A DNA stretch of 37,990 nucleotides from an uncultured Spirochaetia bacterium (lineage in GTDB: Bacteria > Spirochaetota > JAHITG01 > JAFGFC01). Location: positions 1 through 37,990 of the forward strand of contig CAZSCZ010000002.1 in NCBI GenBank assembly GCA_964605455.1, read 5' to 3'. Below are positions 8,583 to 37,990 of the stretch, piece by piece. Within the stretch, counting starts at the first letter, position 1; every line of letters starts with the position of its first letter. The notes under the pieces are model-generated. The model was not told the origin of the DNA. It saw nothing but the letters and a program-made list of their open reading frames with translations, and searched no databases. The position numbers were made by a program, and so were the translations under genes.

Positions 8583-8670
8583 TTTGAAAAAATAACAATA
8601 TAAAAATTGAATGTCAACAAAAATTTTTTGAAAAAATAACAATATAAAAATTAAATGTCAACAAAAATCT
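8583..8670 (-). promoter_or_regulatory. tandemly duplicated 44-bp unit, each carrying TTGACA-N17-TATTTT
   Basis: Units 8583-8626 and 8627-8670 differ at 3 positions. The -35 boxes (plus-strand TGTCAA) are at 8612-8617 and 8656-8661. They are oriented toward the OMP gene, giving leaders of about 110 and about 155 nt. Confidence 0.55.
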
Positions 8671-19998: not shown

Positions 19999-20011
19999 AT
20001 TATTATTTTTC

Positions 20012-20836
20012 TCAATTTAACTTAAAATGTGGAGAGCCTGTCTTCAATTTCTCCGATTCTTCAACAATGTTAACTATATCGTCTATTTTAATAGATTCTC
20101 CATTATCTTTAATATGAGATAGAAACTCTATATTGCCTTTAGGTCCTTTTATTGGGGAATAGGTTAAATTTACAATTTTTAATTTAATAGAATTTATATA
20201 TTCTAAAAATCTCTGAAGCACTTTTATATGCACAGATTTATCTCTAACAACACCTTTTTTTACTTCCTTTTTTTCAGCTTCAAATTGGGGCTTTATTAAA
20301 ACAATTATATCAAAATCAGAATTTAAATAAGGAATTAAAATATGAAGAAATTTTTTAACAGAAATAAATGATACATCTACTGTTACAATATCAATCTTTT
20401 CATAAAAAGTTTTTTCGTCTATATATCGTATATTGGTTTTTTCGCACAATATAACCCTTGGGTCATTACGCAATTTCAAATCCAGCTGACCATAGCCCAC
20501 ATCTACAGCGTAAACCTTTTTTACTCCATACTGTAGAAGACAATCGGTAAAGCCACCTGTTGATGCACCTATATCAAGAGCAACCTTCCCTAAAAGTTTT
20601 ATATTAAATGTATTAAGTGCTTTTTCTAATTTATATCCACCTCTACTTACATACTTTTCAGGTTCGTAAATTTTAACATTTTTTATTTCATCAGGAGAAA
20701 AAAGTTTTCCTGGTTTGTCCTGCCTTGTATTATTGATAAATATTCTTCCTGTAGAAATATATGAAGAGGCTTTTGAACGAGATTTAAAGTAACCTTTTTC
20801 TACAAGGATAATATCAAGCCTTTTTTTATTTTTCAT
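20012..20836 (-). CDS. tlyA: TlyA family rRNA (cytidine-2'-O)-methyltransferase
   Basis: S4-like N-terminus RLDIILVEKGYFKSRSKASSYI. FtsJ-type SAM motif LDIGASTGGFTDCLLQ. Confidence 0.85.
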   Translation of the reverse strand: MKNKKRLDIILVEKGYFKSRSKASSYISTGRIFINNTRQDKPGKLFSPDEIKNVKIYEPEKYVSRGGYKLEKALNTFNIKLLGKVALDIGASTGGFTDCLLQYGVKKVYAVDVGYGQLDLKLRNDPRVILCEKTNIRYIDEKTFYEKIDIVTVDVSFISVKKFLHILIPYLNSDFDIIVLIKPQFEAEKKEVKKGVVRDKSVHIKVLQRFLEYINSIKLKIVNLTYSPIKGPKGNIEFLSHIKDNGESIKIDDIVNIVEESEKLKTGSPHFKLN

Positions 20837-22692: not shown

Positions 22693-23489
22693 TAGTCTCT
22701 CACTTTATAATTAATTCTGAAAATTTTAATAGCTTTCATATTTGATTTTAAAATAGAAACAACTACGCCATTTATTCTTAAATCATCTGTTGCAACTTTA
22801 AATTTTATTGGCATCCGTGTAAGAAAATGAGATATTACATTTTCTTTTTCCATCCCAATTACAGAATCAAAAGCACCTGTCATTCCTACATCAGTAATAT
22901 AAGCTGTTCCTTTAGGTAGTATAGTTTCATCTGCTGTTTGTATATGAGTATGAGTACCAATTACTGCAGTAACTTTTCCGTCTAAAAACCATCCCATTGC
23001 TACTTTTTCAGAAGTAACCTCAGCATGAAAATCTACAATTGATATGTCATATCTTTCTCTGGCAACAGAATTTAAAATATCAGAAATTTTTTGAAATGGA
23101 CAATCAACTTCCAATAAATTTACTCTTCCCAAAAGATTTATTACAAGTATTTTAATATTTTCTTTTTTATAAATATTCCAGCCTTTACCAGGATTTGAAT
23201 CGGGATAATTCGCAGGTCTTAAAAGACGTGGTTCTATATCAATTATTTTCAAGATATCTTTATTTTTCCAAATATGATTTCCTGTAGTAATAACATCAAT
23301 TCCTTTTTCAAAAAGCTGACTAACTATTTTTGTAGTCATACCAAATCCACCAGCCGCATTTTCACCATTTGCAATTACAAAATTTATTTTATATTCATCT
23401 ATAATCTTGGAAAGTGCTGCTGTTAAACACTGTCGTCCAGATTTGCCTACAATATCACCTATCAAGAGTATATTAAAATTTTCATTCAT
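22692..23489 (-). CDS. ymdB: YmdB-like (TIGR00282) metallophosphoesterase
   Basis: ILLIGDIVGKSGR, ANGENAAGGFG, TGNHIW, GTHTHIQTAD. Lies immediately downstream of rny, as in Bacillus. Confidence 0.85.
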   Translation of the reverse strand: MNENFNILLIGDIVGKSGRQCLTAALSKIIDEYKINFVIANGENAAGGFGMTTKIVSQLFEKGIDVITTGNHIWKNKDILKIIDIEPRLLRPANYPDSNPGKGWNIYKKENIKILVINLLGRVNLLEVDCPFQKISDILNSVARERYDISIVDFHAEVTSEKVAMGWFLDGKVTAVIGTHTHIQTADETILPKGTAYITDVGMTGAFDSVIGMEKENVISHFLTRMPIKFKVATDDLRINGVVVSILKSNMKAIKIFRINYKVRD

Positions 23490-23495
23490 TTATTT

Positions 23496-25031
23496 TTACC
23501 TTGCATATTCAACTATTCTGGTCTCTCTTATAAGAGTAACTTTAACTTGGCCAGGGTAACGTAGTTCGCTTTCAATCTTTTTAGCTATTTCCTTTGCAAG
23601 GAATTTAGAATCCTCATCTGAGACCTGACTATTTGAAACTATAATTCTTATCTCACGGCCAGCCTGAATAGCATAAGACTTCTCTACTCCTTTAAATGAG
23701 TTAGCTATCTTTTCAAGCGTTTCAAGTCGTTTGATATATTCATCAACATTTTCTTTTCTTGCTCCTGGTCTTGAAGCTGAAATTGCATCTGCTGCCTGGA
23801 CCAACACAGCATATACAGATTCAGGTTCTCTATCTCCATGATGAGATGCAATTGCATTGACAACTATTGGATTTTCATTATATTTTTTAATAAATTCTGC
23901 ACCAGCAATAGCATGTGTTCCTTCGCCAGCATCAGTGGAAAGACATTTCCCAATATCGTGAAATAATCCAATTCTTTTTGCTAATTGTGAATCCAGCCCT
24001 AAATCAGATGCTATTGAACTGCATAGATAAGCTACTTCAATGCAATGATTAAGTGTATTTTGACCATAACTTAACCTGTAATTCATTTTTCCTATTAATT
24101 TAATTATATCAGGATGAATACCCTGTAATCCTAACTCAAATATTGCTTGCTCACCACGCTCTACCATATAATTTTCAATATTTTTTTTAACTGTTTCAAC
24201 CATTTCTTCTATTCTGGTTGGATGAATTCTACCGTCAAATATAAGTTTTTCTAAAGCAATTTTCGCAATTTCACGTCTCAAAGGGTCATAACCTGAAATA
24301 ATAACTGTATCTGGTGTGTCGTCTATTATAATATCAACTCCTGTAAGATTTTCAAGCGTCCGAATATTTCTACCTTCTCTTCCTATTATCTTTCCTTTTA
24401 TTTCATCATTAGGAAGATGAACAGTAGTCACAGAAAATTCAGAGGTAAATTCAGATGCATTCCTTTGAATTGCATTAATAATTATTTCTTTTGCTTTCGC
24501 TTCTGCAGACCTTCGTGCTTCTTCTTCTATCGTAGATGAAATTTTCAGTGCATCGTATCTTGCTTCCTTTTCTACATTTTCTAAAAGTAATTTCCTTGCC
24601 TCTTCTCTGCTCAGCTTTGATATCTTCTCAAGTTGCTCCTGAATCCTTTCTTGCTCCTGTTTTAAATATCCTTCTTTCTCTCTTAACTCCTTCTCTAATT
24701 GGTCAGCAAGCGATTCTTTTTTTTCTAAAATTTCGACTCTTTTATCAATAGTCTCTTCTTTCTGCCTAAGCCTCTGTTCAAGACTTTGCAGCTCTTCTCG
24801 CCGTGTCCTGAACTCTCGCTCAAATTCACTTCTTTCATTATATAACTGATCTCGTGCCTCAAGTATAAGCTCTTTCTGCTTAGATTCTGCTTCTCGTTCC
24901 GCATCTTCAAGAATCTTTTTTGCCTTAACTTCTGCACTTGTTAATTTTATCCTTCCTATTAAAAGCCTTAATCCATAACCTAATGCTATGCCGCCAATTA
25001 GAGAAGGGAGTATATATCTTAATACCTCCAT
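23496..25031 (-). CDS. rny: ribonuclease Y
   Basis: N-terminal TM helix, long E/K/R coiled coil, KH domain (IGREGRNIR), HD domain (LFHDIGK). Preferred start is ATG 25031, preceded by GAGAGGGGGTG. The 19-codon extension in the ORF track contains the predicted promoter. Confidence 0.9.
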   Translation of the reverse strand: MEVLRYILPSLIGGIALGYGLRLLIGRIKLTSAEVKAKKILEDAEREAESKQKELILEARDQLYNERSEFEREFRTRREELQSLEQRLRQKEETIDKRVEILEKKESLADQLEKELREKEGYLKQEQERIQEQLEKISKLSREEARKLLLENVEKEARYDALKISSTIEEEARRSAEAKAKEIIINAIQRNASEFTSEFSVTTVHLPNDEIKGKIIGREGRNIRTLENLTGVDIIIDDTPDTVIISGYDPLRREIAKIALEKLIFDGRIHPTRIEEMVETVKKNIENYMVERGEQAIFELGLQGIHPDIIKLIGKMNYRLSYGQNTLNHCIEVAYLCSSIASDLGLDSQLAKRIGLFHDIGKCLSTDAGEGTHAIAGAEFIKKYNENPIVVNAIASHHGDREPESVYAVLVQAADAISASRPGARKENVDEYIKRLETLEKIANSFKGVEKSYAIQAGREIRIIVSNSQVSDEDSKFLAKEIAKKIESELRYPGQVKVTLIRETRIVEYAR

Positions 25032-25066
25032 ATACACCCCCTCTCTAATTCTTTTTAAATTTATTG

Positions 25067-25095
25067 ATATTACTAATATTAAATTCATTTGTCAA
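25067..25095 (-). promoter_or_regulatory. sigma-70-type promoter TTGACA-N17-TAATAT for rny
   Basis: Reverse strand: atatTTGACAaatgaatttaatattagTAATATcaat. Leader of about 30 nt to the ATG at 25031. Confidence 0.5.
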
Positions 25096-25447
25096 TATAA
25101 ATTTAAGTGTGCTTGAAAAATAATTTATAATTTTAAATATATCAATAATTGTAAAAAAAGAAATATATCTTTTCCTAATATAATTTAAATGATAATAAAC
25201 TTTTTTTACCCATTTATGTCTTAAACATAGTTATAAACTTCTGGACTTTTGTATATAAATTTATATGTTATTCATTAAATAAATAAAGTGACAATTACTG
25301 AATAAATACCATAAAACATATAAAGATTTTATACAGGTAAAAGCTAATTTTAGTGATAAGTTTTTAATATGAAACGAAAAGTAATAATAAATATTCTGTA
25401 AATTCTGTGTCACTGTGACTAAACATAATATAACAAGGAGGCATATA

Positions 25448-25840
25448 GTGAAAAAAATATTGATAATTGATGATGATGTAGATTTTGTTAATGCTATAAA
25501 ATTGTTATTGGAATCAAAAAATTATACTGTTATTTCTGCCACTAATAGTGAGAAAGCACTGATATCTATAGAAAAAGAAAAACCTGATTTAATAATTTTA
25601 GATGTAATGATGGATAGCCCAGATGAAGGTTTTCAATTTGCATATAAGATACGTTCAAGCGAAAAATTTAAAAATATACCTATACTTATGACTACAGCAG
25701 TTTCACAGATAACTGGATTTAAATTTTCACCTAAAAATGATAACATAGATGAAAATTGGATACCAGTAGATGAGTTCATAGAAAAGCCTATTGAGAGCGA
25801 ACAATTTTTAAAGAAAGTAGAACATCTACTCCAAAAATAG
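25448..25840 (+). CDS. stand-alone response regulator receiver (CheY-like) protein
   Basis: GTG 25448 preceded by AAGGAGG plus 6 nt. KILIIDDD acidic pocket, phospho-acceptor in IILDVMM, then MTTA and EKP. No output domain. Confidence 0.8.
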   Translation: MKKILIIDDDVDFVNAIKLLLESKNYTVISATNSEKALISIEKEKPDLIILDVMMDSPDEGFQFAYKIRSSEKFKNIPILMTTAVSQITGFKFSPKNDNIDENWIPVDEFIEKPIESEQFLKKVEHLLQK

Positions 25841-25901
25841 TAAAAGATATTATACTTAACATTATAAAAAATAGGGCAATAGTTCAAATTTTTTAAAAAA
25901 T

Positions 25902-25931
25902 GTAGCAACAGGACTTTAGCCCTGTTGAAAT
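25902..25931 (+). repeat. 30-nt hairpin repeat unit GTAGCAACAGGACTTTAGCCCTGTTGAAAT
   Basis: 7-bp stem CAACAGG/CCTGTTG with loop ACTTTAGC. Related units occur at 35509-35538 (+), 35546-35572 (inverted) and, in degenerate form, at 26109-26142. Confidence 0.55.
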
Positions 25932-26181
25932 ATAGTTTGTAGATGAGAAATATATCTGTTCCCTATAAAAATCGCAAAGAAATAATAATTTTTGTTTTTT
26001 AGAAAGTCTGAAATATTACAAAATAGTTTTTTCGCAAAATGAAAGGGAAAGTCAGAACAAGTAATTTCTGACAATTTATTGGGTTAATGGAAAATTAGAT
26101 TTTTTAATGTAAAAACAAACTTTTTTCCTGTCTATTAAAAATATATTGCACAAAAAATTAATAAAGTTGTGCACCGTCCCC

Positions 26182-26658
26182 TTAACTCAACCATTTAAAA
26201 ATCCACAGCAAAATATTTGCATAAATTCCAGCAATAATATCATCCAGCATTATTCCCCAGCCACCCTTAAGATTTTCAATTTTGGGGATTGGATAAGGCT
26301 TGATTATATCAAAAATTCTAAACATTACAAATCCCAAAATTAAAATCTTATAATCTGAAAAACAAAATTGTGAAAGATTTATATTCACATTGAACCCTGA
26401 CATTGTAACAAGCATGCCAGCAATTTCATCAATAACAACCTGTTTAGGATCTTTCTTGCCAAAATAGATTTCTGCCCAAAATGAATATTTTGCCCCCAGA
26501 AAAAATATAATAATTATAGATGGATAATAAACATAAGGGAATGGATTAAAAACAAGAAATATCAAGACCCCAACAAGTGCTCCAATTGTGCCCGGAAAAA
26601 AAGGGAAATATCCTGCAAAAAAACCAGTAACAAAAAGTTTTTTTAAAAAATTTTTCAT
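26182..26658 (-). CDS. pgpA: phosphatidylglycerophosphatase A
   Basis: FFAGYFPFFPGTIGALVG...DEIAGM...FRIFDIIKPYPI..., typical PgpA. Overlaps the pgsA stop. Confidence 0.85.
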   Translation of the reverse strand: MKNFLKKLFVTGFFAGYFPFFPGTIGALVGVLIFLVFNPFPYVYYPSIIIIFFLGAKYSFWAEIYFGKKDPKQVVIDEIAGMLVTMSGFNVNINLSQFCFSDYKILILGFVMFRIFDIIKPYPIPKIENLKGGWGIMLDDIIAGIYANILLWIFKWLS

Positions 26659-27302
26659 TTAATAAATTTTCTATTTACAATTATATATACAATTCCAGAA
26701 TAGAATGTAACAAATAGAACAATAATTAAAAGAATAAGAGGTAAATAATTTAAAAAAATTCCAGGAATTTTTCCTGCTATATTTTGCCAGAAAAATTTAT
26801 TATTTTCTACATAAACAATGCGATATTCTAAAAGGAATGTTCTAATACACATTAATACTAATGTTGTAATAATAGCTATCATTTGAGTAACTGTTTTCAA
26901 TTTTCCCAGGAAAGATGTTTTAACTTCACTACCTTTGGTAATTGCAAAAATTCTCAACAAGGTAATTCCTATTTCTCTAAGCAAAATTATCAAAACAAGC
27001 CAAAAGGGGATATTATTTTCTGGTTTAAAAGAAAAACAGAAAAATGCGGTAAGCACAAGTAATTTATCAGCCAATGGGTCAAGGAATCTACCAAGTTTTG
27101 TTTCCCACCTGTATTTTCGTGCAATCTTTCCATCAATGTAATCTGTAATAGATGCAATAATAAAAACTATAAGTGACAAAAATTGATATAAAAATTCTTT
27201 TTGAAATAAGAAAAATACAAACAACGGGATAAGTGCGACTCTGAAGATGGTAAGAATATTTGGTAAGTAATTAAACTTTTTCAGCTTTAAGGTCATAGTC
27301 AA
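26655..27302 (-). CDS. pgsA: CDP-diacylglycerol--glycerol-3-phosphate 3-phosphatidyltransferase
   Basis: CDP-alcohol phosphatidyltransferase motif DYIDGKIARKYRWETKLGRFLDPLADK. The start could be 27302 or 27296; either overlaps the rimO 3' end. Confidence 0.85.
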   Translation of the reverse strand: MTMTLKLKKFNYLPNILTIFRVALIPLFVFFLFQKEFLYQFLSLIVFIIASITDYIDGKIARKYRWETKLGRFLDPLADKLLVLTAFFCFSFKPENNIPFWLVLIILLREIGITLLRIFAITKGSEVKTSFLGKLKTVTQMIAIITTLVLMCIRTFLLEYRIVYVENNKFFWQNIAGKIPGIFLNYLPLILLIIVLFVTFYSGIVYIIVNRKFIK

Positions 27303-28551
27303 AATTCTCAGTAATTTTTACTTTTAATACATCTCCTACTTTTATGTTGTTACAGGAATTTATTAAAATATTTCCATCAATTTCAGGTGCTTCAAATTGA
27401 CTTCTTGTAAAAGCTATATTCTCTTCCGACAAAACTTCGTCAACCACTACATCCTGAATTTTACCTTTTCTTGTTTCAAGCCATTCAGAGGTAATCTCTT
27501 TTTGAACTTCTATAGCTTCTTCCAACCTTTTTGACATTTCTGAATCCTTTAATTTGCAGGGCAGCTTATATGCAGATGTATTTTCTTCATCTGAATATTT
27601 ATAAAAACCAACCCAGTTAAATTTTACTTTCTTTAAAAAATCTATTATCATTTTAAAATCCTTTTTTGTTTCACCAGGAAATCCAATAATAAATGTGCTT
27701 CTAAGAACTATATCAGGAATTTCATTACGAATTTTATCAATAATTTTAAAATAAAAATTTTTATCAGATGGTCTTTTCATTTTTGAAAGTATTGACGGGC
27801 TTATATGTTGAATAGGCATCTCTATATATTTACAAAATTTTGGGGAATCTTTTATAAATTTAATAACGGATAGTAATTTTTTTTCAGGATAAAGATAAAG
27901 CAATCTTACGCGATAGATTTGGTCAAGTTTTTCAATATCTTCAAGCAAATCAACAATATTTTCGTTATTATCAGTTCCAAAATTTAAAACATCATGAGCT
28001 ACCAAAACAATCTCCTTAAATCCCATCTCAGAAAGATATTTTATTTCCTGAATAATAGATTTTTTACTTCTACTTATAAAATTGCCCCTTATAGAAGGAA
28101 TTGCGCAATAACTGCACCGCCGACTACAGCCCTCAGCAATTTTTACATAAGCATAAGACTTAGGAGTTAAAATTATTCTTTCATAAAAATTCATCTGTTT
28201 TATATTTGTATGTCCAATAAAATAATTAAATGCTTCTTTAACTGTAAAAAAATTTTTAATCTCAGGAATAGAACGTTTTAAGATTTCCTTGTATCTTGTG
28301 ACAAGACACCCTAATACATATATCTCTCTATTATTAAAATTTGTATATTCCAAAATAGTATCAATAGATTCTTCTTTTGCTGGCTCAATAAATCCACAGG
28401 TATTTATTAATATAATATCAGCATTTTGTGGTGAATCAGCAGTAATATAATTATTCTTTTTAATAAAGCTATGCAAAATCAATTCAGAATCAACAAGATT
28501 TTTAGGACATCCTAATGATTCAATATAGACTTTTTTTCTTGGAGATTCCAT
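27271..28551 (-). CDS. rimO: ribosomal protein S12 methylthiotransferase
   Basis: UPF0004 N-domain VYIESLGCPKNLVDSE, radical SAM EGCSRRCSYCAIP, C-terminal TRAM domain. Confidence 0.85.
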   Translation of the reverse strand: MESPRKKVYIESLGCPKNLVDSELILHSFIKKNNYITADSPQNADIILINTCGFIEPAKEESIDTILEYTNFNNREIYVLGCLVTRYKEILKRSIPEIKNFFTVKEAFNYFIGHTNIKQMNFYERIILTPKSYAYVKIAEGCSRRCSYCAIPSIRGNFISRSKKSIIQEIKYLSEMGFKEIVLVAHDVLNFGTDNNENIVDLLEDIEKLDQIYRVRLLYLYPEKKLLSVIKFIKDSPKFCKYIEMPIQHISPSILSKMKRPSDKNFYFKIIDKIRNEIPDIVLRSTFIIGFPGETKKDFKMIIDFLKKVKFNWVGFYKYSDEENTSAYKLPCKLKDSEMSKRLEEAIEVQKEITSEWLETRKGKIQDVVVDEVLSEENIAFTRSQFEAPEIDGNILINSCNNIKVGDVLKVKITENFDYDLKAEKV

Positions 28552-28612
28552 AATAAATTACTCATCTATTACGATATAAGCCATTTTTCAAAGGCTCATT
28601 TAGCAGCGATTT

Positions 28613-29962
28613 TTATTGCCAATCTTTTATTATTAAGTTATAAATACTATCATCGTATGGATCTTTTTCCCATTTTATCACTTTATTGGCAATTTCCCCT
28701 CTTCTCCCTAATTTCTGTATCTTACCATTTATTTTTGCAATAATACCACCAGCATTTCCTATTTTAAGTTGCATTACATCTTTAGCTTCAAAATATACCT
28801 TATCTTTGGGATAATAAATTTTTCCTTCTTGTTCTTTCCCATCAAGAAAAGCTTTTATATATGTTCTTTCACGGACAATAGCTTCAAATACTATCTTTCG
28901 CTTCTCTGGTGGAATAATCGCTTTGTTTTCTTTTTCCTCTTTTTTGGCATTATTATTGGTTACACTCGCCTGAACATTTGTCTGATTTGTATTTGTTGTC
29001 ATTGCTACAATAAAAGGATGCAATTTTTTTATAGATGCATTAAATAAATCTTTATTAATAGAATTTATTTTAACATTAATATCCTTTACACCATCAAGGT
29101 CAAAGTCAAAGCTTTGCTCTTCACCCGGAATTATTTGTAAAATAATATCATCAAAATGAAACGCTATATTTTGTTGTTCTACCTGCTGATTTGTGGCTTC
29201 TTTTGTTATATCCATTGCAGGTGTTAATTGTTCAAACATAATTGTATGAAATTTATCACCAAGTTTAATTTTGTAATATTCTGATGCAGCAAAATCATAT
29301 TTCAATACATCTCCATCAAATTCTAAATACTTAATTTCTGAAAGTTCTGTATAAATCGCCTGTTTTTCTGAAGTTGTTATTTTAATAATAATATTTCTAA
29401 TTAAATAACCTAAAAGAAAAATAATAACCAGGACAAATACACTTGTAATTATTACAATAGGATTTACAAATTTCTTACCTTTTAGAGGCACAGGAGTTAT
29501 AGGTTCTATTTCTGCTTCAGATTCTTTTTTTATCTTCTTTCTTCGCAATTTAGGTGTAGGTAATTCCTTTTCATTTATTTCCATAATTTCAACAGGTTCA
29601 CTTTCTAACTTTTTACGTGTTCTGCGACGAGGTTTTAAAACTTCCTGTGGTTTTGATACTGCTGAAATTTTTGCTTCTTTCCCTTCCTCTTCGTAAAAAG
29701 AGGGTTGGGCCTTTTCAATTATAGGTGATTGAACCTTCATTGATTTATAAAGACTCACTATTTCTAATGGATCTAATCCCAACGCCCTTGCATAATTACG
29801 AATAAATCCAACAATATAAGTTTCACCAGGAAAAATCGTATAATCATCTGCTTCTATTGCTTTCAAATACTTAATTCCAATTTTTGTTTCCTCTGATATA
29901 TTGTTTAAACTTAACTTTCTTTTCTCACGCTCTTTTTTTAAAATTGTTCCTACTGATGTCAT
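28613..29962 (-). CDS. rodZ: RodZ-like cytoskeleton protein (HTH + TM + DUF4115-like C-terminus)
   Basis: Preferred start is ATG 29962 (AAGGAG plus 7 nt). HTH region GTILKKEREKRKLSLNNISEETKIGIKYLKAIE, then FIRNYARALGLDP. Charged linker, one TM helix, C-terminal ...LKIGNAGGIIAKINGK.... Confidence 0.7.
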   Translation of the reverse strand: MTSVGTILKKEREKRKLSLNNISEETKIGIKYLKAIEADDYTIFPGETYIVGFIRNYARALGLDPLEIVSLYKSMKVQSPIIEKAQPSFYEEEGKEAKISAVSKPQEVLKPRRRTRKKLESEPVEIMEINEKELPTPKLRRKKIKKESEAEIEPITPVPLKGKKFVNPIVIITSVFVLVIIFLLGYLIRNIIIKITTSEKQAIYTELSEIKYLEFDGDVLKYDFAASEYYKIKLGDKFHTIMFEQLTPAMDITKEATNQQVEQQNIAFHFDDIILQIIPGEEQSFDFDLDGVKDINVKINSINKDLFNASIKKLHPFIVAMTTNTNQTNVQASVTNNNAKKEEKENKAIIPPEKRKIVFEAIVRERTYIKAFLDGKEQEGKIYYPKDKVYFEAKDVMQLKIGNAGGIIAKINGKIQKLGRRGEIANKVIKWEKDPYDDSIYNLIIKDWQ

Positions 29963-29966
29963 AGCT

Positions 29967-30665
29967 TTACTCCTTTCCACTATCAAACAATAAAGGATTT
30001 ATAATACTCTGTGTATTTATAGGTAAATTAAATTCAAATTCATGTTCTGTTAATTTTGTGTTTATTCTTATCCTGCTAAAACTTATAGTAATTATATTTT
30101 CATTTATTGTTTCAGCTTCAGCTTTCACTATTATCCAATATTGGGAAACCCACAATTTTATTTTCTTAAATTCAGAAAGACTTTCACGAGGCTCAAGAAG
30201 GAGCACATAGAATGGAGTATCTCCAATTATTATTGGTTTATTACTTTCAGCAAATGAAAAATTATATTTTGAACGCAAGTAATAAAGTGAAGTCTTACCA
30301 CTTATAAAGAATGTAGAACGATACTGTGTCCTGAGCCTCTGTTCTCCAACAACATTAAGTTCAGGAATATAAATTTTTAACACTTTGCCATCAGAAAATA
30401 TTATTTGGTCTTCTGGTTTTTTAAATATCATTATAAAGGTATCAGGTTTTTTATACTTTATCTCTCCATAAGATTTTTTTTCTTGTCCTTCAATAATTGT
30501 TTTTATATAAAATCTTGCAACAAATGTATTTATTTTCTCAAATTTATTCACCATATTATTTACAATTTCCTGGACAGTAGTAATTTTTGGTAGAGATGGC
30601 TTTTCAGCACTATATAAAAATGAGTAAAACAAAAAAATAAATAATATAAAAATTATCTTTTTCAT
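29967..30665 (-). CDS. lolA: LolA-like outer-membrane lipoprotein carrier protein
   Basis: Signal peptide. ...FVARFYIKTIIEGQEKKSYGEIKYKKPDTFIMIF..., a pattern typical of LolA. 4-nt overlap with the ftsK stop. Confidence 0.6.
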   Translation of the reverse strand: MKKIIFILFIFLFYSFLYSAEKPSLPKITTVQEIVNNMVNKFEKINTFVARFYIKTIIEGQEKKSYGEIKYKKPDTFIMIFKKPEDQIIFSDGKVLKIYIPELNVVGEQRLRTQYRSTFFISGKTSLYYLRSKYNFSFAESNKPIIIGDTPFYVLLLEPRESLSEFKKIKLWVSQYWIIVKAEAETINENIITISFSRIRINTKLTEHEFEFNLPINTQSIINPLLFDSGKE

Positions 30666-32869
30666 AGTTTCTCTATATAAACTTCTCTTGGTTTACTTCC
30701 AATTTGAGGGCCTATGAGCCCATCTCTTTCCATTTGGTCTATAATGCGTGCTGCACGATTAAATCCTATTTTCAATCTTCTCTGTAAATATGATGCCGAT
30801 GCTTTCTTAGTCTCTTTTACAATTTCTTTAGCCTTTTCATAAAGCACATCATGCCCTTCTGGCTCTGAAATCATATTTTCTCTTGATTCAATTTCTTTAA
30901 CAATTTCCAAAAGATTAATATACTCAATTGTTTCTGTATTTTCAACAATAAAGTTAATAATTTTTTCAATTTCTTCTTCAGAAATAAATGCACCTTGAAT
31001 TCTTATAAGTCCTGGACGTCCTCCAAATGAAAGCAACATATCCCCTTTGCCAAGTAGTTTCTCAGCACCAACTGTATCTATTATTGTTCTTGAATCAACT
31101 CGTGATGCCACCTGAAATGCTATTCTACTGGAGAAATTTGCTTTTATTATACCTGTTATAACATCAACCGATGGTCGCTGAGTTGCAAGCACAAGATGAA
31201 TACCTACTGCTCTCGCTTTCTGTGCAAGCCTTACAATTAAATCTTCTATCTCGCGTGCCACCATCATCATTAAATCAGCAAATTCATCTATTATTACCAC
31301 AATATATGGTAGAACCTCTATCCTTTCATCTCTTTTTCGCTTTCTCAATGCTTTCTCATTATATTTATCTATCTCCCTTACTCCAAACTCGTCAAGCAGA
31401 TAATACCTCCTTTCCATCTCCTCAACAAGATATTTTAATACTAATACAGCATCTTTGGGATTTGTTATTACTTCAGTTAATAAATGAGGAATGCCATTAT
31501 AAACTTTAAGTTCAACCATTTTCGGATCAATCATTATAAATCTTAATTCAGCAGGTGTTACATTATAAAGGAATGTACATATAATGCTATGTAAACAAAC
31601 ACTTTTTCCTGACCCCGTGGCACCTGCTATTAGAAGATGAGGACAATCTTTTAAATTTACTTTAATAGGATTACCGGCAATATCTTTTCCAAGTGCAATT
31701 TCAATAAGCTTATAATGTTTTCTAAATTCTGGCAAACTCAAAATATCACCAAGTGTAACAGTTGCTCTTATTTGATTTGGGATTTCTACACCAACAGCTG
31801 CTTTACCTGGAATAGGAGCAACTATTCTTACACGTTGGGCAGCAAGTGAAAGTGCAATATTATCCGCAAGCCCTACAATCTTGCTTACTTTTACACCAGC
31901 AGCAGGTTGAATCTCATACCGTGTAATTACAGGACCACGAAATATATTTACTACTTTTGCAAATATCCCAAATTCCTTTAATGTTGTCTCTAACCGCCGT
32001 GCTGTTTCATAAGTATTTTTTTCTATTGCTTTTATATCAAATGGCTCTGATTTTTTCAAAAACCCTATCGGTGGAAATGTATATTTAACTGCTCCAGAAA
32101 TCCTTCTCTCTTTTCTTACAATTGACTTATCTTTCAATAATATTATACCCTTTTGAGATTCTGGCTTAACTTTGATTTTCTTTCCTGTTCCTGTTGACTC
32201 TTTTGGTTCCTCTTCACCAATAGTTACTTTTACTATAAGTGGTGGCTTTTCATTACCATCTGTAGCAATAACCTTTGGTTTAAATAAAGTAATAAAAAAT
32301 TCTTTTATTTTTCTACAGCCTTTTAAAATATCTCTGAAAAATGTAATAATGTTCCTTAAAGAAAAATTTGTTGTTAACATTAAAGAAAAGAAAATAAAAG
32401 AGATACAAACAATATAGAGTCCTGGCAATCCAATGTAATTTTTTAAAGATACACTTAAAAAAAGTCCAACAATTCCACCATTACTAATTAAATTAAAAGG
32501 TGTGCCTTTTATCACGGATATGCTTGCTAAAGTGGAAAAAGTTAAAGTAAAAATCACCAGCCCAATAATAATAAATCCTGCATCATTTATATCTTTCTTT
32601 ATTAAAATATACCATCCAATCAGAAGTATAATAAAAGGAACTATAAAAGCGGATTTCCCAAGCCCAAGGAAAAGTAAGGACGAGAGAAATGAACCCGCAA
32701 TTCCACCCCAATTTTTGGGCGGTCGGTTAGGCGAAGTTGTGAAAAATCCTGAATCATAAGGATCAAAGCTTATTAAACTCAAAAATGTTAGTACCCCCCA
32801 CCCAATTATAAATAGTGCAATAATATCATATAATATCTTCTTCTTCTCTCTTTTATTCTTATTGCTCAT
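30662..32869 (-). CDS. ftsK: DNA translocase FtsK
   Basis: N-terminal TM helices, Walker A LLIAGATGSGKSV, Walker B VVIIDEFADL, C-terminal gamma (winged-helix) domain ...SASYLQRRLKIGFNRAARIIDQME. Confidence 0.95.
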   Translation of the reverse strand: MSNKNKREKKKILYDIIALFIIGWGVLTFLSLISFDPYDSGFFTTSPNRPPKNWGGIAGSFLSSLLFLGLGKSAFIVPFIILLIGWYILIKKDINDAGFIIIGLVIFTLTFSTLASISVIKGTPFNLISNGGIVGLFLSVSLKNYIGLPGLYIVCISFIFFSLMLTTNFSLRNIITFFRDILKGCRKIKEFFITLFKPKVIATDGNEKPPLIVKVTIGEEEPKESTGTGKKIKVKPESQKGIILLKDKSIVRKERRISGAVKYTFPPIGFLKKSEPFDIKAIEKNTYETARRLETTLKEFGIFAKVVNIFRGPVITRYEIQPAAGVKVSKIVGLADNIALSLAAQRVRIVAPIPGKAAVGVEIPNQIRATVTLGDILSLPEFRKHYKLIEIALGKDIAGNPIKVNLKDCPHLLIAGATGSGKSVCLHSIICTFLYNVTPAELRFIMIDPKMVELKVYNGIPHLLTEVITNPKDAVLVLKYLVEEMERRYYLLDEFGVREIDKYNEKALRKRKRDERIEVLPYIVVIIDEFADLMMMVAREIEDLIVRLAQKARAVGIHLVLATQRPSVDVITGIIKANFSSRIAFQVASRVDSRTIIDTVGAEKLLGKGDMLLSFGGRPGLIRIQGAFISEEEIEKIINFIVENTETIEYINLLEIVKEIESRENMISEPEGHDVLYEKAKEIVKETKKASASYLQRRLKIGFNRAARIIDQMERDGLIGPQIGSKPREVYIEKL

Positions 32870-32882
32870 AAAATGTTAAATA

Positions 32883-32911
32883 ATAATATAAATTCTATAT
32901 TTAACTGTCAA
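32883..32911 (-). promoter_or_regulatory. sigma-70-type promoter TTGACA-N17-TATTAT 13 nt upstream of the ftsK ATG
   Basis: Reverse strand: tttttgTTGACAgttaaatatagaatttaTATTATtatttaacattttATG. No SD between the -10 box and the start. Confidence 0.5.
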
Positions 32912-33003
32912 CAAAAATCTGTGTGGTTATTTAAAAAATTTAGTAATTAGAGAAAAATCATCAATTATTTATAGCTTTTGGAGCCATACAACATTTACAG
33001 CTA

Positions 33004-33065
33004 AGAGTGTTCGGTAATTTAAGTGACAAAAGGGACACCCCCCACTCACAGGATGTGAGTGGGGG
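33004..33065. repeat. two-block conserved element, copy B, with a 10-bp G+C-rich hairpin
   Basis: Block 1 AGAGTGTTCGGTAATT at 33004-33019. Block 2 hairpin CCCCCACTCA (33039-33048) / TGAGTGGGGG (33056-33065) with loop CAGGATG. Homologous to 7455-7530. Confidence 0.5.
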
Positions 33066-33126
33066 CCACACCTACAGGTGATAAGTGCGCTACTTTATCT
33101 AAAGTATAGCTTAAATAAAATAAATA

Positions 33127-33270
33127 TTGAAAATTTTTTGGAAATGTAGTAAATTATTTTATAGGGAGAGACGATAATAGGATTAGGGATATCGGACAGT
33201 ATTCCCCTCCCAATTATTGTCCAATATTCCAAGGGGGGCGCAAGCCCCCCTCTTTCTTCTCCCCCCTATA
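33127..33270 (+). promoter_or_regulatory. promoter TTGAAA-N17-TAAATT plus a ~110-nt G+C-rich three-helix leader RNA (unclassified riboswitch/attenuator or sRNA candidate)
   Basis: P1 is 33164-33170/33257-33263. P2 is 33186-33198/33218-33230. P3 is GGGGGGC-GCAA-GCCCCCC at 33233-33250. A U/C-rich tail follows, then U8 at 33296-33303. The downstream ATG is at 33392. Confidence 0.5.
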
Positions 33271-33391
33271 GTATTACTAAAAAATTTTCCTTTACTTTTT
33301 TTTATAATTCAATATATTTATTTTTTATAATTTTATATGATGCGGCTATATTGCCTTACATTTTATTAGTCTAAAATTTTAGGAGTATTTA

Positions 33392-34426
33392 ATGAAAATA
33401 CCTGTTAACATTCGTAGATTTATTATTATATTAGCTATAAGTTTTATTGTAATTGGCATTATAATTTATTTTACAGCTACCAAACAAACATTAATAGCAA
33501 TTAAAAATATAAATACAAAATTTGTTTTTTTAGCTATTTTCTTTTATTTCCTTGAATTTACTGCTGATGCTGTAAGAACAAAAATATTAATAAAAGGGAC
33601 ACAACATAAATTAGGATTATTTGAATGTTACAAGTTAGTAGCATTACAAGTTTTTTTTGATGTTATTACACCATTTAGTGTAGGTGGACAACCTTTTCAA
33701 ATATATATTTTGCATAAAAAGAAAGTTCCTGGGGGGAGTGCAACAACAGTTGTTATGACTAAACTTTTATTTGCTGCATTTTCTTTAATATTAATTGTTA
33801 TATTTGGACTGCTTTTTCATAGTGAACTTTTCGCATCTGTGCCTTTACTTGTATTATTTGTTAAAATCACAGGATTTCTTCTGCTTCTTATATTTTTTAT
33901 CTTTATCTCAGGGGTCTATAATCCTGCAATTACAACAGTAGTATTAACATTTATCTTTAAAATTTTATGGAAACTTAAGATTAGCAGACATCCTGATAAA
34001 TTTAAAAATAAAATAATGAAACATATAATACTTGCCAGAAATAGTTTTGATGGATTTGTAAGTCATAGAGTTTTATATTTTATTGCAGGATTAGTGCTTT
34101 CTTTTGTAATGATACTTTCTACTATAATGATGATAATTTCATTTATATGGGGATTTGGAATTAATCTTCCTTTAATTAGTGGGATTATCCTTACATCTTC
34201 TCTTATTTTTCTTATAACATTTATGCCAACTCCTGGTTCAAGCGGGTTAGGGGAAGGAATTTTTTATCTTCTTTATAATCAATTTGTTCCTAATCATTTA
34301 ATAGGTATATGTATATTTCTATGGAGATTCTTTACCCAATACTTTACTGCTGTATTAGGTGCTATCGTTGCTGCTAAATATTTTTCTGAATTACTTATGA
34401 ATAAAAAAATAGCTGAATCAGGATAA
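33392..34426 (+). CDS. flippase-like / LPG-synthase-TM family (UPF0104, TIGR00374-type) membrane protein
   Basis: SD AGGAG plus 7 nt. 8-9 TM helices. Family hallmark ...DAVRTKIL...FFDVITPFSVGGQPFQIYIL.... Confidence 0.65.
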   Translation: MKIPVNIRRFIIILAISFIVIGIIIYFTATKQTLIAIKNINTKFVFLAIFFYFLEFTADAVRTKILIKGTQHKLGLFECYKLVALQVFFDVITPFSVGGQPFQIYILHKKKVPGGSATTVVMTKLLFAAFSLILIVIFGLLFHSELFASVPLLVLFVKITGFLLLLIFFIFISGVYNPAITTVVLTFIFKILWKLKISRHPDKFKNKIMKHIILARNSFDGFVSHRVLYFIAGLVLSFVMILSTIMMIISFIWGFGINLPLISGIILTSSLIFLITFMPTPGSSGLGEGIFYLLYNQFVPNHLIGICIFLWRFFTQYFTAVLGAIVAAKYFSELLMNKKIAESG

Positions 34427-34430
34427 ATCT

Positions 34431-35393
34431 ATGCAACGAAAATTGATTTTAATATTTATAGACGGAATAGGAATAGGTGAAAATAATAAAAATAATCCTT
34501 TCTTTTTAGAAAAAAGCCTATATTTTTCACACTTTAAAAATGAATTTAAAAATGGAATAAAAATTTTTAAAAAAAACAATTTTATAGTATTTTCACTTAA
34601 TCCTTCATTGGATATTAATGGAATCCCTCAGAGTGCTACAGGTCAAAGCTCTATTTTTACAGGAATTAATACTGCTAAAATCTTAAATCAACACCTTACA
34701 GGCTTTCCTAATAGAGAATTAAGAAGAATAGTAATGAAAAATAATCTTTTATTAAAACTAAAACAGAGAGGTTTAAGAGTAAAATTTATAAATTCATATC
34801 CACTTTTTGCAGATGAACTTTCAAAAGGATACCTTAAAATTGATAGTTCGGGATATTTTATATTAAAGAATAAAAATAATGAATCTTTAACAAAATTTTT
34901 AAAAAAGATTTCTGTTACAACCTTACTTGCATTAAGTATAAAACAAAAGTTTTATGGACTTTCTGATTTGATAAATAAGCGAACAATTTATCACGACTTT
35001 ACAAATAATTTTCTTATTTCAAAAGGTATTAATATTCCCCAGTTTACTCCGGATATAGCAGGAGAAATTTTAGTTAAAAATTTAACTTATTATGATGTAA
35101 TCTTATACGAATATTTTCTTACAGATAAAATAGGTCATAAACCTTCAACTGATAATGCAATAACCACAGTAAAAAATCTTGATAAGTTTGTAAATAGTAT
35201 AATTAATTTAGTAAATCTTAAAAAAACAGATATTTTTATATTTAGTGACCACGGTAATTTTGAAGATTTGAGTATAAGGACTCATACAAAAAATAATGTG
35301 CCTTTTATACATATTGGAGAGAGTATAAATTTTCGTCATAAAATAAACAATATTACAGACATATATAAATATATCTTAAATCTAAAGCAATAG
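34431..35393 (+). CDS. alkaline-phosphatase-core metalloenzyme (phosphopentomutase / cofactor-independent PGM-like)
   Basis: ILIFIDGIGIG (metal Asp), PQSATGQSSIFTG (nucleophile region), DKIGH, IFSDHGN. Pattern of the PF01676-type metalloenzyme superfamily, judged from memory. Confidence 0.5.
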   Translation: MQRKLILIFIDGIGIGENNKNNPFFLEKSLYFSHFKNEFKNGIKIFKKNNFIVFSLNPSLDINGIPQSATGQSSIFTGINTAKILNQHLTGFPNRELRRIVMKNNLLLKLKQRGLRVKFINSYPLFADELSKGYLKIDSSGYFILKNKNNESLTKFLKKISVTTLLALSIKQKFYGLSDLINKRTIYHDFTNNFLISKGINIPQFTPDIAGEILVKNLTYYDVILYEYFLTDKIGHKPSTDNAITTVKNLDKFVNSIINLVNLKKTDIFIFSDHGNFEDLSIRTHTKNNVPFIHIGESINFRHKINNITDIYKYILNLKQ

Positions 35394-35508
35394 ACTTCTT
35401 CCTATGCTATCTGGTAATATACCTTATCCACTCCCAAATTTTGTGGTATATTGCAAATATATAGAACTCACAGAAATTTCACGTTTGCTCATTTTTTACT
35501 ATCAAAAT

Positions 35509-35572
35509 GTAAAAACACAACTTTAGCTGTGTTAAAATATTCATATTAACAAAGCTAAAGCCCTGTTTTTAC
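35509..35572. repeat. inverted pair of the 30-nt hairpin repeat units
   Basis: GTAAAAACACAACTTTAGCTGTGTTAAAAT at 35509-35538. Reverse complement of 35546-35572 is GTAAAAACAGGGCTTTAGCTTTGTTAA. The arms are separated by 7 nt. Confidence 0.55.
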
Positions 35573-35662
35573 AATGAAACAAAGCCTTATCAACAGGGAA
35601 AATGACATTAAATAGGATACTTTTCAGGAAACAAGAAATTTCTGTAGAAATTAATCAAAAAC

Positions 35663-35727
35663 TTGAAAAATAGATTTTATTTTATAAATTTGTTAAGTGC
35701 TAAATAATTGAAAGTGCTCAATAATTT
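35663..35727 (+). promoter_or_regulatory. promoter TTGAAA-N16-TAAATT followed by a tandem 16-nt direct repeat (candidate operator)
   Basis: -35 at 35663-35668 and -10 at 35685-35690. AAGTGCTAAATAATTG at 35695-35710 and AAGTGCTCAATAATTT at 35712-35727, period 17. Confidence 0.45.
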
Positions 35728-35770
35728 AAATGGCAAAAGGCACAAAATTTTATGGTTCTTGGGTCATATT

Positions 35771-35965
35771 ATGAGTCTAAAATCACGCTCCAGAGAGAGA
35801 CGTAAAAGAATTGTAGCAAATTATGCAAAAAGCTTTGAAGAGGCAGAAAAATGGGACTTAGAGTTCTGGCAGAAACAAACTCCACAGATGCGACTTTCAG
35901 CTCTGGTGGCAATTAGAGAGGATATTAAAAAAATCAATTCAGAGAAATTAAAAGAAGAAGTCTAA
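35771..35965 (+). CDS. small basic protein, candidate antitoxin/partner of the downstream nucleotidyltransferase
   Basis: MSLKSRSRERRKRIVANYAKSFEEAEKWDLEFWQKQTPQMRLSAL.... Its stop overlaps the downstream ATG (TAATG). The start is uncertain: the track TTG 35708 lies inside the direct repeat. Confidence 0.45.
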   Translation: MSLKSRSRERRKRIVANYAKSFEEAEKWDLEFWQKQTPQMRLSALVAIREDIKKINSEKLKEEV

Positions 35966-36426
35966 TGGAAACAATAAAAGATTTTGAGGATTTATTATTT
36001 TTATTTGAAAAATATAAGGCGAAATATCTCATTGTTGGTGGGTTAGCCTTTATATTTTATGCAAAACCACGATATACAAAAGATATGGATATCTGGATTG
36101 ATCCAACTTTACAAAATATAAAAAAAGTAAATAAAGCACTTGCTGAATTTGGTTCACCGTATTTAGTATCTATTCCAATAAAAAAAGATGAAATTCTCCA
36201 ATTGGGGCTCCCACCAAACCGAATAGATATTATGTTAAAAATTCCTGGAGCACAATTTAGTTCCTGTTGGAAGAAAAAAGTGCGAAGTAAATATGGAAAA
36301 ATAAAAGTTAACTGGATTGATATGGATACCCTGATAAAAGTAAAAAAGAAAATAAATCATCCACGACATCAAGAAGATGTTAGAATATTAATGCAAATTA
36401 AACAAACGAAAAAGAAATTTGATTAA
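35965..36426 (+). CDS. minimal nucleotidyltransferase-fold protein
   Basis: ...KAKYLIVGGLAFIFYAKPRYTKDMDIWID...LQLGLPPNRIDIM.... The G-G...D-x-D pattern and size match small NTases that pair with short upstream genes, judged from memory. Confidence 0.5.
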   Translation: METIKDFEDLLFLFEKYKAKYLIVGGLAFIFYAKPRYTKDMDIWIDPTLQNIKKVNKALAEFGSPYLVSIPIKKDEILQLGLPPNRIDIMLKIPGAQFSSCWKKKVRSKYGKIKVNWIDMDTLIKVKKKINHPRHQEDVRILMQIKQTKKKFD

Positions 36427-36605
36427 ATTATTATCTAAACAGCAGATAGTATGTTTCGGCTACATCTGCCATTAATTGAGTGAAATATTATGCAAAACAG
36501 GAAAAGACCTGAATAATTTTCAGTTTTATAAAGAACAGATTTGTATTATGTTAGATAGATGTATTGGCAAAAAAGTTATCTGTCATTGCGTGTAAGGAAT
36601 AGAGT

Positions 36606-37412
36606 ATGAACAAAATAGATTTCTCAAGAATTGCAACAGAATATGAAGGATATGCTACAGCTCAAAAATCAGCGTCAGAAATACTGCTAAAACTTCTGAG
36701 AATTGGAGATAATTATGACATTTTAGATTTAGGATGCGGAACAGGGAATTTAACGAGAAAGATAAGAAGTTTGACAAATGGAAAGGTTGTAGGAATTGAG
36801 CCTTCTGAAGGGATGATAAAAGAAGCTATCAAAAAAAGTAGAGGGTTAGACATAGTGTATGAAATTAAAAGTGCAGAAGAAATAGACTACAAGGAAAGTT
36901 TTGATGTTATTTTTTGTAATTCAGTCTTTCAGTGGTTGAAAGAGCCCGAGAAAGTAATAAAAAATTGCTACAGAGCATTAAGAACAAATGGAAGAGTTGG
37001 CATTCAGGCACCTGCAAAGAAAATATATTGTCCAAATTTTATAAAAGCTATTGAAACAGTGAAGAGAGATAAAAGGACAAAAGAGATATTTGCGCACTTT
37101 AAGGAACCATGGTTCTTCCTTGAAACCGCAGAAGAATATAAATCTCTATTTGAAAAGAATGGTTTCAAAGTTGTGTTTTCAAAAATTGCGCGCGTTATAA
37201 CAGCACATACGCCTGAAGAAATGTTTAAAATATTTTCTTCGGGCGCTATAGCTGGATATTTAAACCAAGATTACTATGATACGGAGTTGACGGAAAACTA
37301 TATCCAGGCATTCAAAGAGATTGTGAAAGAATCATTTGAACAGCAAACGAATGAAAACGGGATGGTAAAATTAAAGTTCAACAGAATATTCTTAATAGCG
37401 GTAAAAGAATAA
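36606..37412 (+). CDS. class I SAM-dependent methyltransferase
   Basis: Motif I ILDLGCGTGNLT, post-I VVGIEPS, and FDVIFCNSVFQWL (trans-aconitate/Tam-like pattern). Confidence 0.8.
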   Translation: MNKIDFSRIATEYEGYATAQKSASEILLKLLRIGDNYDILDLGCGTGNLTRKIRSLTNGKVVGIEPSEGMIKEAIKKSRGLDIVYEIKSAEEIDYKESFDVIFCNSVFQWLKEPEKVIKNCYRALRTNGRVGIQAPAKKIYCPNFIKAIETVKRDKRTKEIFAHFKEPWFFLETAEEYKSLFEKNGFKVVFSKIARVITAHTPEEMFKIFSSGAIAGYLNQDYYDTELTENYIQAFKEIVKESFEQQTNENGMVKLKFNRIFLIAVKE

Positions 37413-37416
37413 TAGC

Positions 37417-37456
37417 TTGTAGGGGTTTGATAAATCAGCCTCCTTACAATTTTTTT
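37417..37456 (+). terminator. rho-independent terminator after the methyltransferase gene
   Basis: Stem TTGTAGGGG (37417-37425) / CTCCTTACAA (37441-37449, includes G-U pairs), followed by T7 at 37450-37456. Confidence 0.55.
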
Positions 37457-37482
37457 GTTTGTTTATCAAATTATTATAATTT

Positions 37483-37770
37483 ATGCTTAAAATTAAGCTC
37501 CCATTCATTATTACCGCTTTTTTGTCATTGCAATGTAACAAAGTAACTGAAGCAATTTCAAAAAAAGTTCGCTTCGCTTTAATTGTTCAAATTGATTATC
37601 ATACACTATATATCAGGATAGACCCTAAAAAACAAGATGTTATAAATCAAAGAGTAAATGAAGATGTGGTTTTAGATATAGGAGAAGGGGATAGAATAAT
37701 TGGTATAGAAATAATGAATGCTGCAAAAAGGATCAATCTTAAAGAGATATTTCCTGTTAAGATAATATAG
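37483..37770 (+). CDS. DUF2283-like small protein (start uncertain)
   Basis: C-terminal 60 aa ...IDYHTLYIRIDPKK...VVLDIGEGDRIIGIEIMNAAKR... fits the DUF2283 pattern (YD.e.D.lyI.l...v.lD.d..G.ivGIEil.as). The N-terminal 35 aa of the ORF are not family-like. Confidence 0.45.
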   Translation: MLKIKLPFIITAFLSLQCNKVTEAISKKVRFALIVQIDYHTLYIRIDPKKQDVINQRVNEDVVLDIGEGDRIIGIEIMNAAKRINLKEIFPVKII

Positions 37771-37860
37771 TATAGAACAGTCTAAAAAAGTTACAGAAAA
37801 AAATTTGTGATGAAAGTTAATTTTTATTGATACGACCACTAACTTGCGTTTCACGAAAAG

Positions 37861-37888
37861 CCAAAGGCTTTATATACCAGCCTTTTGG
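37861..37888 (+). terminator. terminator-like stem-loop immediately upstream of the putative intron
   Basis: CCAAAGGCT (37861-37869) / AGCCTTTTGG (37879-37888), 9 bp with one bulged T and a 9-nt loop. Confidence 0.4.
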
Positions 37889-37896
37889 TGGGCGTG

Positions 37897-37990
37897 GTGT
37901 GCCTCTGACCGATAGGCTCCATCGCTGAGGCTCGGAGCCTATCGGGTGGTGGGTCGGAAAGTCGCCTATCCGCAACTAAAGGAGATGGCA
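37897..37990 (+). mobile_element. putative 5' end of a class C (IIC) group II intron, cut by the window edge
   Basis: Starts GTGTGCC, as does the Oceanobacillus iheyensis IIC intron (GUGUGCCCGG...). It then has a 12-bp G+C-rich hairpin and CUAUCGGGUGGUGGGUC, resembling CUAUAGGGUGAGAGUC of that intron. G+C rises abruptly here, and the position just after a terminator-like hairpin fits. Confidence 0.4.

Follow-up and report, generated by a model that had tools for sequence, protein, structure and literature searches.

A lineage-restricted candidate small RNA gene upstream of a flippase-like operon in an uncultivated Spirochaetes-like bacterium

Introduction

Does a compact, G+C-rich RNA structure that lies ahead of an operon, in the same orientation, regulate that operon from within its leader, or is it a gene in its own right? 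This question is raised by a 37,990-nt stretch of DNA (here called the window) from an uncultured Spirochaetia bacterium (GenBank assembly GCA_964605455.1, contig CAZSCZ010000002.1). A 522-bp gap between two divergent genes, ftsK (30662 to 32869, minus strand) and a flippase-like gene (33392 to 34426, plus strand), holds a structured element that a first-pass annotation had placed in the leader of the flippase-like operon as an unclassified three-way-junction RNA with switch-like pairings. The closest database relatives of the window's proteins are sequences from metagenome-assembled genomes (MAGs), and those that carry names are labeled Spirochaetes or Spirochaetota. To our knowledge, essentially no small RNAs (sRNAs) have been described from this uncultivated, AT-rich, Spirochaetes-like lineage.

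Results

The intergenic region folds into a stable plus-strand structure

The region ahead of the flippase-like gene stands out by composition. Positions 33001 to 33300 are 38.7% G+C, compared with about 28% for the whole window, and five of the window's seven G6/C6 runs fall within 32794 to 33266, bearing out the G+C-rich folded stretch that had been noticed there. The proposed three-way junction is exactly the minimum-free-energy fold of 33155 to 33310 on the plus strand, at -49.9 kcal/mol (z = -4.19). None of 200 dinucleotide shuffles reaches this stability, and the minus strand of the same region folds less exceptionally (z = -2.6). The motif coordinates in the first-pass annotation are all right: P2, P3, the U8 run, AGGAG, the ATG at 33392, and both registers of P1 (GGGAGAG 33164 to 33170 with UUCUCCC 33257 to 33263; UAUAGGG 33160 to 33166 with CCCUAUA 33264 to 33270). 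The comparisons below are with L003, a locus on contig JAFGFC010000009 of the Spirochaetes MAG Zod_Metabat.1289 whose flippase-like protein shares 79% amino acid identity with that of the window. The element comprises the following features.

33127 to 33155, plus strand: promoter-like site TTGAAA-N17-TAAATT, with a predicted transcription start at about 33162 to 33164 and a homologous site in L003
33167 to 33180, plus strand: conserved 5' segment AGAGACGAUAAUAG, unpaired in the P2 fold
33186 to 33230, plus strand: P2 hairpin, whose 13-nt loop contains CCCCUCCC (33204 to 33211), from the minimum-free-energy fold and identity with L003
33233 to 33260, plus strand: P3 GCAA hairpin (33233 to 33250) and then the pyrimidine tail UCUUUCUUCU, an intrinsic-terminator-like 3' end

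P2 is built of helices of 7 and 8 bp separated by a single unpaired nucleotide on each strand, and all 13 modeled pairs between its arms (33186 to 33198 and 33218 to 33230) form in both copies. Its 13-nt loop in the minimum-free-energy fold, UUCCCCUCCCAAU, is identical in L003 and includes CCUCC, which within CCCCUCCC is complementary to the GGAGG core of the Shine-Dalgarno sequence. The loop thus exposes a C-rich (UCCC) motif that is conserved, unpaired in this fold, and capable of pairing with Shine-Dalgarno sequences. In both genomes P3 forms a 7-bp stem of G:C pairs without mismatches (GGGGGGC-GCAA-GCCCCCC in the window and GGGGGGC-GAAA-GCCCCCC in L003), so that the GNRA cap described for this helix is not only present but preserved through a change of tetraloop. 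The 18-nt P3 palindrome occurs once in the window, and the hairpin (-18.9 kcal/mol) heads the list of terminator-like structures for positions 19001 to 37990. A pseudoknot pairing the P2 loop with the G run of P3 would be sterically implausible, given the 15-bp P2 and the 2-nt linker.

P1 fared less well than the other two helices. Its coordinates and its place in the fold hold, but its arm at 33160 to 33170 is not conserved, lying partly in a stretch with 45% identity to L003. The P1 shared by both copies is only a 5-bp AGAGA:UYUCU helix, the 3' strand of which is the terminator tail, and P1 is weak evidence.

The earlier suggestion of mutually exclusive pairings is supported. The invariant GACGAUAAU, in the 5' segment, can pair with AUUAUUGUC (33213 to 33221) in both copies, at the expense of P2. 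The two folds are near-isoenergetic: the P2 fold and the alternative fold have energies of -41.6 and -40.2 kcal/mol in the window and of -34.2 and -35.7 kcal/mol in L003, a gap of at most 1.5 kcal/mol in either copy. The P2 loop UUCCCCUCCCAAU is partly paired in the alternative fold. No antiterminator is evident, since P3 is retained by both folds.

Conservation begins at the promoter and ends at the terminator hairpin

blastn aligns window positions 33127 to 33250 with L003 positions 3752 to 3872 at 81% identity, and the colinear block starts exactly at 33127, the first base of the -35 hexamer. As a neutral reference, we used third positions of four-fold degenerate codons for identical residues in the flippase gene. 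These are 30% identical between the two genomes, indicating that neutral sites are saturated. Identity to L003 along the region is as follows.

80 nt upstream of the -35 hexamer: 52%
Element promoter, -35 to -10: 79%
11 nt around the predicted transcription start: 45%
RNA body, 33167 to 33250 (84 nt): 87%
Terminator tail, 12 nt: 54%
Spacer beyond the tail: 31%
Downstream (operon) promoter region: 72%
Remaining leader: 36%

Conservation thus starts at the -35 hexamer and stops at the terminator hairpin, as expected for the boundaries of a transcription unit. A scan recovered the promoter and terminator signals of the element at the homologous positions of L003. Positions 3752 to 3780 of that locus carry the same promoter hexamers with the same spacing, and a TG precedes the -10 hexamer. 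Matches to a sigma-70-like consensus are no more frequent in the AT-rich DNA of the window than in shuffles of it, and the call of a promoter at 33127 to 33155, correctly placed by the first-pass annotation and plausible, therefore leans on its 79% identity to L003 and not on the motif match. At the other end, the U-tract is broken in both copies (UCUUUCUUCU in the window and ACCUCUCUUUUU in L003), suggesting that termination at the P3 tail may leak.

Within the RNA body, AGAGACGAUAAUA of the 5' segment is identical in L003 and is followed by a 1-nt gap, and the loop and 3' strand of P2 are 100% identical. The 5' strand of P2 differs at four positions, all of them A-U to G-U exchanges that keep the pairs. 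Read from the opposite strand, each such G-U pair becomes an A·C mismatch, so pairing is preserved only if the plus strand is the RNA. The element is found in two of about 18 loci, and the changes between the two copies are one-sided only. With just two known copies compensatory covariation cannot be shown, and on two sequences the shuffle control (243 of 500) is uninformative; two cells of P3 scored as unpaired in this check reflect a 1-nt register slip of the alignment. No conserved small open reading frame crosses the element, the overlapping frames differing between the window and L003, and no tRNA or tmRNA gene was found. Together, the fold and the comparison with L003 confirm that the element is a real, conserved, structured, and selectively constrained sequence, unclassified and RNA-like on the plus strand.

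The element is present in two of about 18 orthologous loci

We ran cmscan against Rfam 15 on the whole window at the gathering threshold and, permissively, on the 701 nt from 32800 to 33500. The window contains no match at the gathering threshold, and the best scores in the permissive search (14 to 19 bits against thresholds of 58 to 155) are at chance level. With no match to a riboswitch or any other Rfam family, the label "unclassified" is upheld.

About 22 close orthologues of the flippase-like protein are known (51 to 81% identity). Their loci came from collections of genomes and metagenomes and from look-ups of exact protein matches, and about 18 distinct orthologous loci were compared. 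Only the window and L003 carry the element, which is missing ahead of about 16 other orthologous flippase-like/metalloenzyme operons. Among the loci that lack it are the closest orthologue, L058 (81% amino acid identity), L059 and L060 (72%), and also L001, L002, L004/L040, L038, L039, L041 to L044, L050, and L061 to L064. Similarly, when the intergenic region was compared with 57 loci by blastn, L003 alone matched, and the region upstream of ftsK in three relatives is devoid of the element. A covariance model consisting of P2 and P3 (R1) was run on the window, on the loci closest to the window's genes, and on six viral contigs; for the closest relatives the filters were switched off. Its scores were 119 bits for the window and 106 bits for L003, and nothing else in the loci searched was credible. 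In the viral contigs, a 27-mer had no match and a 16-mer had six, none of which (0 of 6) was confirmed by the covariance model. The 38-kb window and about 430 kb of other loci, viral contigs among them, yielded no second copy of the element apart from that in L003.

Three weaker candidates were set aside. Positions 17585 to 17677 of L067, from the same MAG as L003, gave a 17-bit model match and share GAUAAUAGGGAUA and a two-hairpin layout with the element. This match lacks the C-rich loop, lies right after the stop codon of a minus-strand LTXXQ-domain gene, and resembles the terminator region of that gene; we judged it to be due to chance. A 14.7-bit match at 25896 to 25977 of the window covers another terminator-like hairpin. 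G+C-rich sequence upstream of the genes in L038, L039, and L064 is a different block, non-homologous to the element, and in L038 it sits at the 3' end of an upstream gene.

The operon has its own promoter-like site below the element

Downstream of the element, the plus strand carries these features.

33291 to 33318, plus strand: promoter-like site TTTACT-N16-TATATT of the operon, downstream of the element
33392 to 34426, plus strand: flippase-like gene (LPG_synthase_TM / TIGR00374; Pfam and NCBIfam matches)
34431 to 35393, plus strand: Metalloenzyme-superfamily gene (Pfam and NCBIfam matches)

The two genes are as the first reading had described them, and the pair is conserved in relatives; the window also encodes ftsK, lolA, and RNase Y. 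In a four-way upstream alignment of the window, L003, L058, and L059, both CTTTACTTT and TATATATT are invariant. More widely, 10 of 14 loci (nine of them distinct, L004 and L040 being the same contig) carry TTKAYT-N16-18-TAT(A/T)TT at 9 to 95 nt ahead of the start codon, as does L061. Because this motif is conserved and is common to orthologues without the element, the operon appears to have its own promoter-like site below the element. The U8 run at 33296 to 33303 is spacer sequence of this promoter-like site and not a terminator tail.

The element accordingly lies outside the 5' untranslated region as defined by the conserved operon promoter at 33291 to 33318. It is co-oriented with the same operon, 40 to 70 nt upstream of the operon promoter, in both the window and L003. 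Complementarity between its conserved segments and the adjacent leader is not significant and does not exceed background. The upstream neighbor differs: it is ftsK in the window and, in L003, an unannotated divergent open reading frame with a signal-peptide-like N terminus, the ftsK of that MAG being located on another contig. The riboswitch proposed for the operon leader is contradicted by its absence from about 16 other orthologous operons and by the conserved operon promoter downstream of the element, and we conclude that the element is probably not a riboswitch of the flippase-like operon.

Other features of the intergenic region and its relatives

A second, unrelated G+C-rich structured block of three adjacent hairpins adjoins the element at 33000 to 33110. 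It includes an 11-bp hairpin, CCCCCACUCAC/GUGAGUGGGGG (33039 to 33065), and it folds better on the minus strand (z = -4.5) than on the plus strand (z = -3.6). On the minus strand it is terminator-like (33056 to 33035, then CCCTTTTGTC), and a weak minus-strand promoter-like site, TTCAAT-N17-TATACT (33131 to 33103), overlaps the plus-strand -35 hexamer of the element back to back. This block has no counterpart in any fetched relative and could be a divergent second small RNA.

Most of the lineages examined (the window, L003, L058, L059, L061, L062, and L001/L004) have a different neighbor ahead of the flippase-like/metalloenzyme pair, so that the junction resembles a rearrangement hot spot. It is a PALP enzyme in L058, a tRNA_anti-codon-domain protein in L059, and an unannotated protein of about 320 amino acids in L061 and L062; in L062 and L063, a Zn-peptidase gene stands in place of the metalloenzyme gene. 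L038 (575 to 740), L039 (40 to 130), and L064 (1 to 140), orthologues with 69 to 71% identity, share a different conserved upstream block, AAAATGATAGTTTTTCAAGATGCMCTTATA, which is non-homologous to the window's element and is preceded by TTGAAA-N17-TAAAAT in L039 and L064, with G+C-rich hairpin-forming sequence further upstream.

Elsewhere in the window, a 44-nt tandem duplication at 8583 to 8670 carries a minus-strand promoter-like site, TTGACA-N17-TATTTT, in each copy and shares AGATTTTTGTTGACA with the ftsK promoter (32911 to 32883; region 32870 to 32920). AGATTTTTGTTGACA may represent an upstream promoter element, or an operator, that these sites have in common. Two long stretches, 25089 to 26181 and 35394 to 35964, have no convincing gene and no Rfam match; minus-strand terminator-like hairpins lie at 25927 to 25906 in the former and at 35589 to 35556 and 35533 to 35514 in the latter.

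Discussion

What, then, is the element? Our preferred reading, to which we give about an even chance, is that it is an independently transcribed, lineage-restricted sRNA gene of about 95 to 100 nt, at approximately 33162 to 33260 on the plus strand. The sRNA would be driven by the sigma-70-type promoter at 33127 to 33155, and P3 with its pyrimidine-rich tail would act as its intrinsic terminator. The 13-nt loop of P2 would display CCCCUCCC, with CCUCC facing the GGAGG Shine-Dalgarno core, and the RNA may pair in trans, through this C-rich loop, with G-rich ribosome-binding regions of mRNAs and so repress their translation. The invariant 5' segment AGAGACGAUAAUAG is a possible second pairing region, and the two near-isoenergetic folds could tune the exposure of the loop or of this segment. 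Duplexes of the whole sRNA with 34 translation-initiation regions of the window do not rise above background, and many window genes have a weak Shine-Dalgarno sequence or none, suggesting that the pool of anti-Shine-Dalgarno targets may be small. Linkage to the same operon in both genomes counts against a stand-alone RNA, since it is also expected of an element that acts in cis. With two known copies, the element remains a candidate sRNA.

That linkage speaks for the cis-acting explanation, in which transcription from 33127 to 33155 would either stop at P3 or read on into the flippase-like operon, making the element a leader, attenuator, or riboswitch. A ligand-, protein-, or temperature-dependent switch between P2 and the alternative fold would then add a regulated input to the operon's constitutive promoter. 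Orientation and tight linkage are retained despite different upstream neighbors, two mutually exclusive folds lie about 1.5 kcal/mol apart in both copies, and the imperfect U-tract would permit read-through. Yet about 16 other orthologous operons, the closest included, do without the element, a conserved promoter-like motif intervenes between it and the gene, and neither fold disrupts the -18.9 kcal/mol P3 hairpin, leaving no evident antiterminator. Rfam offers no riboswitch match, and known riboswitch classes are typically distributed across many genomes, unlike an element known in two. We therefore regard cis action of this general kind as unlikely. A more specific version, in which a recent, lineage-specific conformational switch (P2 versus GACGAUAAU:AUUAUUGUC) senses an envelope or lipid head-group signal and gates read-through into the operon, or acts both in cis and in trans, seems to us very unlikely; if true, it would be the first regulatory RNA tied to lipid head-group translocation.

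Patchy distribution invites a different explanation, namely another kind of functional RNA or DNA element: an sRNA that binds or sequesters a protein, or the relic or cargo of a mobile insertion that carried a promoter-hairpin-terminator module into a rearrangement-prone intergenic region. The element occurs in two lineages with 72 to 79% identical proteins and is missing from others at 81% and 72%, gene order ahead of the flippase-like operon varies from lineage to lineage, and the unrelated G+C-rich hairpin block at 33000 to 33110 adjoins it. A mobile origin lacks support: neither direct nor inverted repeats flank the element, it is accompanied by no transposase or other gene for mobility, and no further copy occurs in the 38-kb window or the roughly 430 kb of loci. 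A decaying relic fits poorly with 87% identity against saturated neutral sites, which argues for a sequence-specific function, and a CsrA sponge was rejected because the GGA motifs are not conserved in L003. We consider this group of explanations quite unlikely. A functionless chance cluster of G+C-rich inverted repeats is extremely unlikely. Occasional G+C-rich hairpins do occur in AT-rich genomes, and chance would account for single-sequence fold statistics only; even there, 0 of 200 shuffles fold as well. It would not account for 87% identity over 84 nt against 30% at four-fold synonymous sites, or for conservation with sharp edges at the -35 hexamer and the terminator.

If confirmed, the candidate sRNA would be a well-delimited small regulatory RNA in a lineage of this kind and another independent case of a C-rich loop that pairs with ribosome-binding sites. 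It opens no long-standing question. The locus also carries a caution for genome scans, as a G+C-rich RNA was read as a riboswitch and comparison of orthologues then put the operon promoter downstream of it.

The element shares with riboswitches that have an intrinsic-terminator platform a structured, multi-helix, G+C-rich form, a position ahead of an operon in the same orientation, a terminator-like hairpin, and competing pairings. Unlike them, it lies outside the promoter-defined leader, is not kept across orthologous operons, has no evident antiterminator against P3, and matches no curated class. Among sub-threshold Rfam alignments, the best one that is full-length and structured is to ar14 (RF02344), an alphaproteobacterial family with the same layout, in which a hairpin bearing a CUCCUCCC-type loop precedes a G+C-rich terminator hairpin with a U-rich tail. 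The score of 17.7 bits (E = 0.6 in the 701-nt search) is far under the gathering threshold of 58.8 and the host lineage is unrelated, so the element is not a member of ar14 and the resemblance is architectural only.

The closest functional parallel is with the Rsa RNAs of Staphylococcus and with RsaE/RoxS, in which unpaired UCCC or C-rich regions lie in the most conserved parts of the RNA and pair with Shine-Dalgarno sequences to block initiation (PMC2790875, PMC4409812). A C-rich motif together with a 3' terminator characterizes sRNAs that target Shine-Dalgarno sequences (PMC2790875, PMC4409812). The element differs from RsaE/RoxS in having no sequence or structure homology to it (no Rfam match to RsaE at the gathering threshold or at E < 10), in belonging to a different phylum as part of a Spirochaetes-like MAG, and in having one C-rich loop in place of several. 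Like RsaE/RoxS of Staphylococcus and Bacillus, it is predicted to be a stand-alone RNA of about 100 nt with a C-rich motif, here UUCCCCUCCC in the P2 loop, in its most conserved part. The likeliest identity is a small RNA that is confined to its lineage but belongs to a functional type already known.
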